Below, one piece after another: positions 54,517 to 56,715 of a stretch of DNA of 64,000 nt. The stretch is from the IMG/VR virus record IMGVR_UViG_3300030202_002001, positions 31,561 through 95,560 of that record. One strand, written 5' to 3'. Both the position numbers and the translations under genes were made by a program. The notes under the pieces were generated by a model. That model was not told the DNA's origin, did no database searches, and was given only the letters and a program-made list of their open reading frames with translations. Each line of letters opens with the position of its first letter. Position 1 is the stretch's first letter. Origin of the DNA: a virus.

Positions 54517-54960
54517 ATGAGCGTTGTTGTGGAACCGACCGTTGAGTGGTCGCCTGAGAAAATGATTGAGGTGTGCCTCAGTGAACCTGATGATTTTCTA
54601 AAAGTACGAGAAACACTTACCAGAATTGGAGTAGCATCAAGAAAGGAAAAGAAACTATACCAATCTTGTCATATCTTGCATAAGCAAGGAAGATATTACA
54701 TTGTTCACTTCAAAGAACTTTTCGCACTTGACGGTAAGAAAGCAAATCTTACTGTAAATGATGTACAAAGAAGAAACAGAATCTCTCAATTGTTGGCTGA
54801 CTGGGGATTGATTTCTGTAGTTGATGCTGAGATGATTCAGGACATCGCTCCTTTGAATCAAATCAAAGTATTATCATATAAAGATAAAGGTAACTGGGTT
54901 TTAGAAACAAAATATAACATTGGTAGAAAAACCAAGACTGAAGGACAAGAGGACTCCTAA
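54517..54960 (+). CDS. regA: Translational repressor RegA
   Basis: PDDFLKVRETLTRIGVAS, LYQSCHILHKQGRYYIVHFKELFALDG. Confidence 0.97.
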   Translation: MSVVVEPTVEWSPEKMIEVCLSEPDDFLKVRETLTRIGVASRKEKKLYQSCHILHKQGRYYIVHFKELFALDGKKANLTVNDVQRRNRISQLLADWGLISVVDAEMIQDIAPLNQIKVLSYKDKGNWVLETKYNIGRKTKTEGQEDS

Positions 54961-54965
54961 ATAAA

Positions 54966-55038
54966 TCGTCGCTCTTTCGTGCGCGACACGCTACAAAGGA
55001 ATATCGCTTGCAAGGGGGGTTGCCACCCTCCTTTTTTT
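54966..55038 (+). ncRNA. Candidate ~70-nt structured RNA with pseudoknot
   Basis: Late box CTAAATA 54957-54963; stem GTCGC/GCGAC whose loop can pair with ACAAAGG; ends in a terminator. Confidence 0.4.
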
Positions 55039-55048
55039 ATGCTATAAT
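55012..55048 (+). terminator. Intrinsic terminator overlapping a sigma70 promoter
   Basis: aaggggggt-tgcc-accctcctt + T tract; TTGCCA-17-TATAAT (55020-55048). Confidence 0.75.
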
Positions 55049-55052
55049 ATAT

Positions 55053-55140
55053 CTGTGGTTAACCACTGCGGTAGTCCCCTTTAATAGGTTCAGGACTAGC
55101 GGCGACAGGAACCTATTGTTAACTCTACAGCCATACGGCT
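55053..55140 (+). ncRNA. Structured leader RNA with H-type pseudoknot
   Basis: TAGTCC(55072-77)/GGACTA(55093-98); AATAGGTTC(55083-91)/GAACCTATT(55109-17); outer GGTTAAC/GTTAACT; hairpin AGCC-ATAC-GGCT. Confidence 0.55.
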
Positions 55141-55147
55141 TGTTATC

Positions 55148-56161
55148 ATGACAATTATCTCAATTCCCCTTTCGGGGGTGCCTAAGGAATTGCGTCAGCA
55201 GATCGAAGAACTTCTTCCTGAACCTCAAGAGGTTCCTGGTTGGAAGTTTGCAGGATATAAATGGCGTAAACTCACACAGATCAATACCAAGGACAGTAAC
55301 GGAAACACAGATAACTCTGTTAGGATTGCTGGAACTGGTGACAACCAGACTCTAGAAGTCTCCCTTGCAAAAGGCATTGACACATCCGTCCTTACTCCAT
55401 CAATCTACGGTATTGATGATCTCCTTAACGGTTTTAACAGGTTGAAGAACCTGAAGCAACTAGGATATAAGGAGTGGATCTTCGCTCAATACGAAGAGAA
55501 CGATCTCACCAAAACCGAATTCCAAGACTCCTTAAGGGAGCGTCTTCAAGATGCCCGTGCATCAATGAATAAGGGATTTGGACAAAAGGTAATTACCGTT
55601 ACCGAGATCGAAGAACTTGGTCGTGAGCGTTTTGAACATCGTGAAGACAGGGAAAAGGACACCATCAAACGGTGGATCTATACCCTTGACTTGAACCTGA
55701 GTCCTCAACAGGTAGAAGGTATTGCAGCAAAAATCTGTAAAGACTTTGCTCGTCGTGGTATCATCGACTCCTATAGTCGTACAGAGGCTCAACTGTTTCT
55801 CGATGAACTTGGCATTGGAGCAGACCTTCTAAACACCTATGGTATTAATGGTGAGAAAGCCGATCCTACTCGTGCTCTTCGTACCATCTATCAGGTGATG
55901 AAGAACTATGTTGATAATGTCGATACAATGAACATTGCTCTCTTCGATTCTCAAGCATCTTCTCACGAAGAACTTGAAGCAAATCGTCAGAGGACTATTG
56001 CTCTTCTCGATGAAATGGATCAACTTGTCTTGAATTATGCTGCAGCGCGTGTAGCAAACCTCAAGGTTCCTCCTTACAATGTGTTTGGTGCTATCCCCCA
56101 GGCAACTGGTAAGGAGCACAAGGATGTTGTAATGCAAGAAAAGAAGTTGATTGAGGTGTAA
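55148..56161 (+). CDS. Hypothetical protein with ParB/Srx-like N-terminal domain
   Basis: NSVR...LEVSLAKG...PSI...LLNGFNRLKNLKQLG resembles the ParB GxxR motif; has its own promoter and terminator. Confidence 0.6.
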   Translation: MTIISIPLSGVPKELRQQIEELLPEPQEVPGWKFAGYKWRKLTQINTKDSNGNTDNSVRIAGTGDNQTLEVSLAKGIDTSVLTPSIYGIDDLLNGFNRLKNLKQLGYKEWIFAQYEENDLTKTEFQDSLRERLQDARASMNKGFGQKVITVTEIEELGRERFEHREDREKDTIKRWIYTLDLNLSPQQVEGIAAKICKDFARRGIIDSYSRTEAQLFLDELGIGADLLNTYGINGEKADPTRALRTIYQVMKNYVDNVDTMNIALFDSQASSHEELEANRQRTIALLDEMDQLVLNYAAARVANLKVPPYNVFGAIPQATGKEHKDVVMQEKKLIEV

Positions 56162-56170
56162 CAACCGAAT

Positions 56171-56205
56171 AAAAAAGGTGGGGGTTTCAACATCCCCCTT
56201 TTTTT
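56171..56205 (+). terminator. Intrinsic terminator, possibly bidirectional
   Basis: A-tract, GGGGGT...ATCCCCC stem, T7. Confidence 0.7.
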
Positions 56206-56277
56206 ATGTAAATGATTAAATAGTATTGGATGCCGTAAGGGTCCACAAAAAATAAACTCGCTTACTAAGGAGCTACC

Positions 56278-56715
56278 ATGGTTAATAACCTAACAAAGTA
56301 TAATGCTGCGAACCTGGATCAATTAATGGACAGGATCACACGCAACAGTATTGGTATGGATGATTATTTCGACCGTATCTTTAAACTGCACGAGACCACT
56401 TCCAACTATCCTCCATATAACCTTGTAGATGTAAGTGCCGTTGAATCGAGACTAGAAATTGCTCTAGCAGGATTCAAGAAGGCTGAGGTTAATGTCTATA
56501 CGCAAGACGGGAAACTCTTCGTAGAGGGGCAGAAAGAGGACAAGGAGACCGAAACCAGTTACTTGCATAAGGGACTTGCTCAACGGTCCTTCACGCGGGT
56601 GTGGACGCTCTCTGATGAGACGGAGGTGAGGCAAGTGGAGTTTGAGGACGGTCTTTTGAGTGTGACGCTAGGGAAGATAATTCCAGAACATCACCAGCGT
56701 AAAACCTGGTTCTAA
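56278..56715 (+). CDS. hsp20: Small heat-shock protein Hsp20
   Basis: NYPPYNL, LEIALAGF, YLHKGLAQRSF, FEDGLL. Confidence 0.95.
   Translation: MVNNLTKYNAANLDQLMDRITRNSIGMDDYFDRIFKLHETTSNYPPYNLVDVSAVESRLEIALAGFKKAEVNVYTQDGKLFVEGQKEDKETETSYLHKGLAQRSFTRVWTLSDETEVRQVEFEDGLLSVTLGKIIPEHHQRKTWF

Follow-up and report, generated by a model that had tools for sequence, protein, structure and literature searches.

The unit analysed here lies on the plus strand between regA and hsp20 in a window of 64,000 nucleotides, the whole stretch of viral DNA that was examined, which is part of a 95.6-kb contig; all positions below are window coordinates. The regA unit ends in a stem-loop with a T-run, detected by a terminator scan at 55012..55033. 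The -35 hexamer of the next promoter is placed inside the loop and 3' arm of this stem-loop, so that the two form a PeSL-type composite of terminator and promoter, and the same layout is found 5' of homologous ORFs. The promoter itself, of sigma-70 type (TTGCCA-17-TATAAT, with TG before the -10 box), was located by the scan at 55020-55048 with 11/12 matches. From the predicted transcription start, a G at 55055, a 4-bp hairpin with a 4-nt loop (P0, 55055..55066; an inverted repeat of -4.3 kcal/mol) extends to the first C of an invariant CUGCGGU, with which the core of the RNA family begins. This core, an H-type pseudoknot at 55066..55117, was matched by the covariance model with 72.3 bits (E = 1.7e-17). 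A second small 4-bp hairpin (55129..55140, -4.8 kcal/mol) and an ATG at 55148 without a Shine-Dalgarno sequence follow, and the 337-aa ORF (55148..56161) is closed by an intrinsic terminator (56180..56205; stem 56180-56197 plus T-run, terminator scan). Thus, the promoter, the small hairpin before an ATG without a Shine-Dalgarno sequence, the ORF's own terminator and the position between regA and hsp20, all part of the original prediction, were recovered at this locus.

The original prediction also described the ORF as ParB/Srx-like. In an AlphaFold model (pLDDT 82), a ParB/Srx-fold domain is predicted for approximately residues 29-204, followed by a helical C-terminal half. For this model, the best Foldseek (E = 9e-4) and VIA-align (highest Z 9.2) matches were without exception to ParB-N, KorB, sulfiredoxin or Noc. 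The 20 top-ranked matches by Z (9.2 to 5.4 over residues 29-204) comprised ParB-N, KorB, sulfiredoxin, Noc, PadC, free serine kinase and one uncharacterised Pyrococcus protein, supporting the ParB/Srx assignment at the level of the modelled fold. In 15 homologues G95, F96 and R98 do not vary; this G95-F-N-R98 motif, a candidate for the GxxR nucleotide-binding loop of the superfamily, lies between a predicted strand (92-94) and a predicted helix (96-105). Sequence-profile searches with the ORF gave no significant match in Pfam (including ParBc), PHROG, NCBIfam or PDB relatives, and at least 182 homologues of the ORF were collected.

Fold and covariation of the RNA family

The core consists of 52 nt arranged in the order CUGCGGU, P1 5' arm, CCUU(U), P2 5' arm, A, P1 3' arm, AGCGGCGAYAG and P2 3' arm, with about 25 invariant joining bases between covarying helices. 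Helix P1 pairs 55072-55077 with 55093-55098 (span 55072..55098) and holds the 5' arm of P2 inside its loop, while the crossing helix P2 pairs 55083-55091 with 55109-55117 (span 55083..55117) into a 9-bp pseudoknot. Among 101 distinct homologues, double-sided changes were found at 3/6 pairs of P1 (about 99.8% of cells paired) and at 6/9 pairs of P2 (99.4% paired); for the two helices together, 99.6% of cells were paired and 9 pairs had changed on both sides. When the partner columns of P2 were slid, only 25-51% of cells were paired, and none of 500 shuffles matched the observed covariation score or percentage paired. These covariation data support the reality of both crossing helices, and the pseudoknotted leader of the original prediction is thereby confirmed. 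On the other hand, the nested minimum-free-energy fold was indistinguishable from that of shuffled sequence (z = -0.58), so that the case for structure is one of covariation and not of folding energy. The CUGC/GCGG extension of P1 is invariant across the family, and therefore covariation speaks neither for nor against it. The search pattern did not create the invariant blocks, because scans with half-patterns recovered one variant only.

The proposal that GGTTAAC/GTTAACT and CTGT/ACAG close the whole leader did not hold. Complementarity between the 5' and 3' flanks across the family was 4.89, against 4.84 with permuted partners, and these outer helices are mutually exclusive with two conserved and stabler local hairpins, P0 and 55129-55140. 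Moreover, the CTGT arm starts 5' of the predicted transcription start, and both GTTAAC copies of the supposed closing stem are parts of an 11-nt direct repeat around the inserted RNA. The outer closing helices are thus not a family feature.

P0 and the promoter are recurrent features of the family. A -10-like hexamer is present in 96/102 distinct members, and family-wide the P0 hairpin starts at the seventh base after the -10 box, with six bases between them. The stretch from the predicted +1 to the first C of CUGCGGU closes as a hairpin in 77/96 members, compared with 3.5/96 for shuffled sequences. P0 is otherwise variable, with 65 distinct sequences of 11-43 nt. A GNRA-type loop is frequent in it.

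The original prediction matched the leader to no RNA family, and the covariance models agree. Rfam 15 was searched permissively with 3.5 kb of the window, with the 101-nt leader by itself and with 9 loci homologous to it. No family was matched on the motif, where the best score was that of RybB at 11.8 bits against a gathering score of 40. The manA and wcaG models were detected elsewhere in these loci at 90-182 bits and never on the motif. The models of hammerhead, twister, twister-sister, pistol, hatchet and HDV-like ribozymes gave no match on the motif at E up to 10. By-eye threading, which gives no more than a lead, found no fit to HDV-like, hammerhead, pistol, guanidine-III, SRP RNA, anti-SD mimicry or T-loop. 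An analogy with T4 rnaC/rnaD was also set aside, as the arrangement differs and the covariance model has no match in the T4 tRNA region. A literature string search with four invariant words returned no paper, and a prior listing in Fremin et al. 2023 (PMC10690425) is possible. In the 200 of 438 supplementary files of Weinberg 2010 that were covered, only scattered chance words were found; in those naming Ocean-VI, CUGCGGU is absent and one file has a single AGCGGCGA. The motif is therefore a cyanophage RNA family that matches no Rfam 15 family.

Distribution and neighbouring genes

Members of the family were recovered from no fewer than 124 IMG/VR contigs and from some 14 cultured cyanophages, among them P-SSM2, S-SM2, Bellamy, ACG-2014f and S-SKS1; the harvest used exact sequence patterns, by which divergent relatives and extra weak copies may be missed. 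The phage-host pairs carrying the motif include P-SSM2/Prochlorococcus NATL1A, S-SM2/WH8017, Bellamy/WH8109 and S-SKS1/WH7803. The chance expectation for the sequence pattern is 0, and members scored 66.6-82.6 bits in the covariance model against at most 25.7 bits for everything else. In prokaryote genomes, at least 120 pattern matches were obtained, and all of those listed were chance matches (at most 22.2 bits). Each of 5 complete phage genomes has the RNA once, 57-59 cyanophage records have it at one place each, and the covariance model found only one match in the window and in the 95.6-kb contig. The exception is one contig with two copies, each at the head of a tRNA sub-cluster, which fits a cis role for transcription units.

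What follows the RNA is far less uniform. In 64/123 instances, tRNA-Arg(UCU) or tRNA-Pro(UGG) lies 1-4 nt after the knot (a gap of 3 nt by Infernal tRNA matches at 4 loci). In 54/123 instances the next element is an ORF, and these ORFs fall into no fewer than 19 families without relationship to each other. Besides the two tRNAs, genes for DUF6561, PurM, phosphomannomutase, peptide deformylase and HNH proteins occur downstream, along with many for hypothetical proteins. In every case the motif lies 5' of the gene that comes next, which has the same orientation, and most ATGs are 13-22 nt away. No protein family travels with the motif: within 3.5 kb, none was present in more than 40% of loci. 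These observations show that the RNA is a portable unit, with about one occurrence in each phage genome, and that its presence does not depend on the downstream gene. In 44% of instances there is no obvious determinant of a 3' end before the ORF, and there the RNA may simply be a cis-acting 5' UTR.

In the phage of the window, comparison with 48 loci carrying ORF homologues (38-72% identity) shows how the RNA is placed before the ParB/Srx-like gene. The pseudoknot RNA is absent from all 48 (0/48), which have a short native leader only. The hairpin at 55129-55140 is kept before the ATG in ORF homologues without the pseudoknot and belongs to the native leader of the ORF and not to the RNA family. 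Moreover, the RNA in the window is bracketed by the two copies of the 11-nt direct repeat (first copy at 55053-55063, second at 55113..55123; 82% identical, spacing 60), the second of which holds GTTAAC, and the homologues have a single related GTAAAC where the second copy stands in the window. Relative to these loci, the RNA thus sits as an insertion with the promoter on one side and the ORF's native leader on the other. In S-SM2, regA is followed directly by the hsp20 leader. The original prediction of an RNA-protein module, in which the leader senses for, binds or neutralises the downstream protein, is unsupported, because the ORF-homologue loci lack the RNA and have their own short leader, and the same RNA also precedes tRNAs and many unrelated ORFs. 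The 337-aa ORF is cargo and not the partner of the RNA.

Possible roles of the RNA

The combination of its own promoter, P0 at the predicted +1, occurrence once per genome and fusion to tRNAs or unrelated genes fits neither a riboswitch nor an ordinary leader. The reading that we prefer, tentatively and with somewhat less than an even chance of being right, is that of a self-contained early small-RNA unit acting through its invariant core. The RNA would be made early by the host RNA polymerase. With the 5' end buried in P0 and the 3' side locked by the knot, the product would be a compact and nuclease-resistant RNA of approximately 65-75 nt. In the tRNA-type instances RNase P would free it with a very short 3' tail, while in the ORF-type instances it may remain on the message or be removed by a cut in the AU-rich spacer. 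A conserved partner, probably a host or phage protein, would recognise the invariant core as a specific surface, and the RNA would act via this partner rather than by controlling the neighbouring gene. A further proposal is possible, though we hold it with appreciable doubt: that the motif represents a new class of marine-cyanophage RNA, either a decoy or sequestering RNA, released by tRNA processing and acting in trans on a conserved picocyanobacterial or phage protein, or a new self-cleaving ribozyme. If this were true, it would be a single-copy early 'RNA gene' riding on shuffled promoter cassettes.

Bacterial mRNAs are stabilised by 5' stem-loops and by obstacles to RNase E scanning. Accordingly, P0 and the knot could form a cis-acting 5' shield or insulator that blocks 5'-end-dependent entry or scanning by RNase E/RNase J, and that would, by analogy with xrRNAs and 5'-terminal stem-loops, stabilise or insulate any RNA placed downstream. 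The start of P0 at the predicted +1, the constant position 5' of a same-strand gene at 13-22 nt from most ATGs, the joint movement of the motif and its promoter, and the covarying helices with conserved joining bases, which are typical of xrRNAs, all speak for such a role. Nevertheless, we consider it unlikely. In more than half of the instances RNase P would sever the motif from the tRNA, so that no RNA would be left to shield. Moreover, occurrence once per genome before different genes is odd for a general stabiliser, the sequence conservation is stricter than a roadblock hairpin requires, and the motif lacks the elements of the coremin definition (PMC6546385).

A new class of small self-cleaving ribozyme, which would trim the 5' leader to leave a 5'-OH or separate segments of the transcript, is suggested by the small size, the pseudoknot, the approximately 25 invariant bases at helix junctions, the phage setting and the lack of consistent gene association. 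A further argument is the GNRA-type loop that is common in P0, and in other ribozymes, too, an upstream hairpin keeps leader sequence out of the fold. However, the ribozyme models of Rfam 15 have no match, the topology as we read it is without the extra helices of the HDV-like, pistol, twister and hatchet folds, and cleavage beside tRNAs is already supplied by RNase P, which makes this role rather improbable. It is quite improbable, too, that the RNA modifies RNA polymerase as a nascent element for processive antitermination or anti-pausing, like HK022 put, through tRNA arrays and terminator-rich cassettes. Its fixed place just behind the promoter, its position at the head of tRNA arrays and of early cassettes with terminator/promoter composites at their borders, and the conservation of both sequence and structure would suit this function, but the downstream units share no common feature, and a put-type element has to remain tethered, whereas RNase P would soon cut the motif loose from a tRNA that starts 1-4 nt after it.

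The first option of the original prediction, a riboswitch or other ligand-sensing leader controlling the downstream gene, has in its favour a compact aptamer-like fold, invariant unpaired bases and a 5' leader location. It is nonetheless very improbable: the downstream genes, half of them tRNAs, have no common function or pathway, and there is no expression platform in the form of conserved downstream pairing, a terminator after the knot or a sequestered start region. Finally, that the RNA partners the ParB/Srx-like protein as an autoregulatory operator or a type III antitoxin is scarcely credible, since their adjacency in the window and the binding of nucleotides by ParB/Srx folds are outweighed by the 48 ORF-homologue loci without the RNA, the presence of the protein downstream of none of the other 122 census instances, the lack of tandem repeats and a neighbour with a ParB/Srx and not a ToxN-like fold.

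Marine cyanophages shape the ocean's main primary producers, and few of their structured RNAs have been catalogued (manA, wcaG, PhotoRC-II), without assigned functions. The present motif is abundant (124 viral contigs or more), occurs in phage-host pairs that are in culture and has a size suited to direct biochemistry, which makes a possible new way of producing or using phage small RNAs directly testable. It also indicates that terminator/promoter cassettes shuffle RNA modules and not genes alone.

Comparison with known systems

The manA (RF01745) and wcaG (RF01761) motifs are RNAs of T4-like cyanophages (Weinberg et al. 2010, PMC2864571). Like them, the present family is an orphan conserved structured RNA confined to marine cyanophages and metagenomes. 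Both occur before auxiliary genes, within their 5' leaders, and in the hyperplastic regions that also hold our motif: manA lies between regA and purL in P-SSM2, and wcaG was found 0.6-1.3 kb downstream of the motif in four loci. On the other hand, the motif is without sequence or model similarity to either. With 52 nt plus P0 it is also the smaller RNA, its 5' end coincides with the predicted +1 of a promoter of its own, and in half of the instances a tRNA follows.

The stable RNAs rnaC/rnaD of T4 and the 3'ETS-leuZ of E. coli are stable or small RNAs with ends set by tRNA-processing enzymes. Like rnaC/rnaD, the motif is a small non-coding RNA within a phage tRNA transcription unit, and in T4 it is tRNA-Arg(UCU) that adjoins rnaC/rnaD. 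However, the T4 stable RNAs lie 3' of tRNA-Arg, while the cyanophage motif lies 5' of the tRNA, from which it would be released by processing.

Coremin and plant-virus or flavivirus xrRNAs, together with 5'-terminal stabilising stem-loops, resemble the motif in being compact, portable and context-independent elements 5' of the RNA to be protected. In xrRNAs too, a hairpin loop is pseudoknotted with downstream sequence and the joining bases are conserved. Coremin (xrRNA_C) is defined by a 3-bp hairpin with a YGAD loop, a conserved 10-nt spacer and a 4-bp hairpin (PMC6546385), and by direct reading 55055-55117 has no YGAD hairpin, spacer or second hairpin. The stretch at 55118-55140 (GUUAAC.., then the 4-bp hairpin) only loosely recalls the coremin spacer and second hairpin. 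Unlike xrRNAs, moreover, the motif would be separated from its tRNAs by RNase P.

The HK022 put RNA consists of two stem-loops (about 70 nt), directs processive antitermination and stays tethered to the polymerase; it is not known as an H-type pseudoknot of the motif's sequence. By analogy, put and the motif may be compared as phage structured nascent RNAs just 3' of an early promoter, put needing no phage protein, but the motif has a tRNA cleavage site 1-4 nt after it, unlike put. ToxI is likewise a pseudoknotted small RNA directly 5' of a protein gene in a phage-related context. It is, however, a tandem repeat array processed by its cognate ToxN-family toxin, whereas the motif is single and unrepeated, with a ParB/Srx-fold neighbour and no conserved pairing with it. 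The type III antitoxin of the original prediction is thus not borne out.

Finally, PeSLs are composite terminator/promoter cassettes of T4-type phages (PMC2839356, PMC4122927). The unit described here is similarly bounded by stem-loop/promoter composites and shuffled in the hyperplastic region between regA and hsp20. PeSLs are regulatory and recombination elements at the DNA level; the pseudoknot RNA comes in addition, as a transcribed module moving together with a promoter of this kind.

Conservation and covariation of a promoter-proximal pseudoknot

The window is a portion of a 95.6-kb T4-like cyanophage contig with an estimated completeness of about 50%. Between regA (54517-54960) and hsp20 (56278-56715), both identified by Pfam, lie a stem-loop with a T-run (55012-55033) whose 3' half holds the -35 hexamer of the promoter TTGCCA-17-TATAAT (55020-55048, TG upstream), the pseudoknot RNA, a 337-aa ParB/Srx-like ORF (55148-56161) and a terminator (56180-56197), in agreement with the sigma70 promoter, terminator and flanking genes of the original prediction. 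The inverted repeats named there were also found: helix P1 pairs 55072-55077 with 55093-55098, and helix P2, which crosses it, pairs 55083-55091 with 55109-55117. A hairpin, P0 (55055-55066; -4.3 kcal/mol), begins at the predicted +1, and the native leader hairpin of the ORF is located at 55129-55140. By nested MFE folding the leader is ordinary (z = -0.58), so energy alone proves nothing.

A blastn search with the 121-nt leader matched unannotated intergenic DNA of S-SKS1, P-SSM2, P-SSM5, S-SM2 and Bellamy, together with two single-cell marine virus assemblies. The contexts differ: the motif stands ahead of a small gene in S-SKS1, ahead of purM in P-SSM2, and 3 nt ahead of tRNA-Pro in S-SM2 and Bellamy. 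An alignment of five sequences already reveals compensatory substitutions in P1 and in P2. A search pattern of three invariant blocks matched once in the window, against 0 expected, and in at least 119 IMG/VR contigs. Among 101 distinct aligned homologues, standard pairs occupied 99.6% of the 1871 cells counted for P1, its CUGC/GCGG extension and P2; both sides had changed in three pairs of P1 and six of P2, whereas all four pairs of the extension were invariant, so that covariation speaks neither for nor against them. None of 500 shuffles equalled the real alignment in covariation score or in percentage paired, and pairing fell to 25-51% when the 3' partners were slid by 1-3 columns. It is evident that both crossing helices, proposed from a single sequence, covary among the leader homologues. 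Because the harvest pattern had forced the three blocks to be invariant, we rescanned with the 3' half only or the 5' half only; both halves were present in every true member found, the sole variant being a single A-to-G substitution, by which a U-A pair becomes U-G. Two covariance models built for the family scored members at 66.6-82.6 bits and all else at 25.7 bits or less.

Of 102 distinct upstream regions, 96 carry a -10-like hexamer ahead of the motif. With +1 set as the seventh base after this hexamer, the predicted start is G in 88/96, and the stretch from there to the first C of CUGCGGU forms a hairpin pairing its first with its last base in 77/96 (3.5/96 with the interior shuffled). 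These P0 hairpins comprise 65 distinct sequences of 11-43 nt, many with GAAA or GAGA loops. Since P0 closes from the predicted +1 to the C of CUGCGGU, the RNA apparently starts as a blunt hairpin that buries its 5' end, and the knot comes directly after it. The pseudoknot RNA, its promoter and P0 are a real, portable unit.

Downstream genes, copy number and possible role

In a census of 123 motif instances, a tRNA follows in 64 (43 tRNA-Arg(UCU) and 21 tRNA-Pro(UGG)), its first base 1-4 nt, mostly 3, past P2; the 3-nt gap was confirmed by Infernal tRNA matches at four loci. An ATG ORF follows in 54 instances, most at 13-22 nt, and these ORFs represent at least 19 unrelated families, including DUF6561, PurM, phosphomannomutase, peptide deformylase, HNH, a Phd-like protein, and function-unassigned proteins of 73 and 222 aa. 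Within 3.5 kb of the motif, no protein family is present in more than 40% of the loci. Exactly one strong copy is present in each of the complete S-SKS1, P-SSM2, S-SM2 and Bellamy genomes and in a 239-kb IMG/VR phage, and the contig of the window has one. One site per record was found in 57-59 cyanophage records, whose hosts are all Synechococcus or Prochlorococcus, and the 120 pattern matches listed for prokaryote genomes were all chance. Two strong copies were seen in a single contig, L066 (128-177 and 1302-1351 on the reverse strand), where one heads a tRNA-Arg/Gly/Asn/Val array and the other heads tRNA-Pro. The motif is independent of the downstream gene, and there is about one copy per genome.

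Among protein-coding genes immediately after the motif, DUF6561 is the most frequent, with 15 instances in two sub-clusters (L052:10354-10707, L120:2292-2555 and 13 further loci). In L066, P0 and the -10 box of the array-heading copy are embedded in the end of the upstream CDS. At another locus, a tRNA-Sec model match that just reaches its gathering score (47.3 vs 47; L007:3489-3574) lies inside a viral tRNA cluster.

We tentatively regard the motif as an early RNA unit kept for its own sake, possibly a small RNA with a conserved partner, because each genome has one copy however much the neighbours differ and because its strict sequence conservation exceeds the needs of pairing. The argument from copy number would be weaker were the motif one of a set of different leader modules in cyanophages. 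A further reason comes from the tRNA-type majority, in which RNase P would sever the motif from the tRNA and leave a compact RNA whose 5' end is buried and whose 3' tail is 1-4 nt long, a shape that would suit a stable small RNA binding a conserved partner. A cis-acting 5' element that shields or insulates against RNase E/J would agree with the hairpin at +1 and with the ORF class but is at odds with the tRNA class and the single copy, and we consider it rather unlikely. A new self-cleaving ribozyme is improbable, and slightly more doubtful still is a put-like modifier of RNA polymerase, which is weakened by the neighbouring RNase P site. A riboswitch has little to recommend it, since the downstream genes are without common function and there is no expression platform. 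Finally, the pairing of the RNA with the ParB/Srx-like protein as a module, as originally proposed, is not supported and hardly credible, the motif being missing from all 48 viral loci with ORF homologues of 38-72% identity (positive control, 71.6 bits).

The ParB/Srx-like gene and its native leader

The ORF has no sequence match in Pfam, PHROG, NCBIfam or PDB and at least 182 marine homologues. In its AlphaFold model (pLDDT 82; Foldseek E = 9e-4), residues 29-204 align on ParB N-domains, KorB, sulfiredoxin, Noc and PadC (Z 9.2 to 5.4), and the invariant G95-F-N-R98 falls at a strand-helix junction; the predicted fold upholds the earlier ParB/Srx assignment.

The native leader of the ORF homologues runs from a stem-loop/promoter composite through a short GTAAAC-containing stretch and a 4-bp hairpin to the ATG, and in the window P0 and the knot stand in place of the short stretch. 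An 11-nt direct repeat (55053-55063 and 55113-55123; 82% identical, spacing 60) flanks this insert; the ORF homologues have one related copy of the repeat, which has the look of a junction left by recombination or duplication. Immediately upstream, the promoter segment is the same, base for base, as in motif-bearing loci whose cargo differs. The outer helices proposed to close the leader (GGTTAAC/GTTAACT and CTGT/ACAG) draw on the two GTTAAC copies and cannot form together with P0 and the native hairpin, both of which are more stable; nor are these outer helices shared across the family. Except for these closing helices, the original observation was largely confirmed. In S-SM2 no cassette separates the end of regA from the hsp20 leader, the two being joined within 198 nt (GU071095.1, 120969-121166; vs window 54900-56300), so that the whole promoter-RNA-ORF-terminator cassette is, judging from this comparison, an indel in a hyperplastic region bounded by PeSL-like stem-loop/promoter composites.

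In the hsp20 leader (56224-56283) the ROSE_3 thermometer model matched only weakly (26.2 bits vs gathering score 43, E = 0.017), over a hairpin and then UCGCU facing AGGAG ahead of the ATG. By blastn, 56142-56300 is conserved in about 10 other cyanophages, at some sites without hsp20 annotation.

Comparison with known RNA families and cassette systems

At E values up to 10, Rfam 15 left the motif unmatched in 3.5 kb of the window, in the 101-nt leader alone and in 9 homologous loci, as expected from the original failure to match it to a known RNA family; manA and wcaG were detected in those 9 loci, but at other coordinates than the motif. A literature search with four invariant words of the motif brought up no paper, an anonymous earlier listing in a large viral csRNA catalogue (PMC10690425) being possible, and the files naming Ocean-VI in the Weinberg 2010 supplements are without any CUGCGGU, one having a single AGCGGCGA. 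The motif is a new, widespread and experimentally tractable cyanophage RNA family.

In P-SSM2, a manA RNA (181.6 bits; L002:1287-1484) fills the slot just after regA, which is that of the motif in the window, and the motif itself sits after hsp20, ahead of purM. In 4/9 loci examined, wcaG RNAs of 90-101 bits lie on the same strand 0.6-1.3 kb downstream of the motif (L001:3143-3240, L003:3777-3872, L004:3695-3794 and L012:150-249), a proximity that may come from shared synteny or mark a functional neighbourhood.

The motif fails the definition of coremin (PMC6546385). The native leader of the ORF family (window 55118-55140; L266-L273) loosely resembles the coremin spacer and second hairpin, with a GUAAAC-type stretch and a 4-bp hairpin ahead of the ATG, but has no YGAD hairpin. 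The promoter and the RNA look to have been moved together by cassette shuffling of the PeSL type (PMC2839356, PMC4122927), the likeness being a unit that lies between stem-loop/promoter composites and acts like a shuffled cassette.
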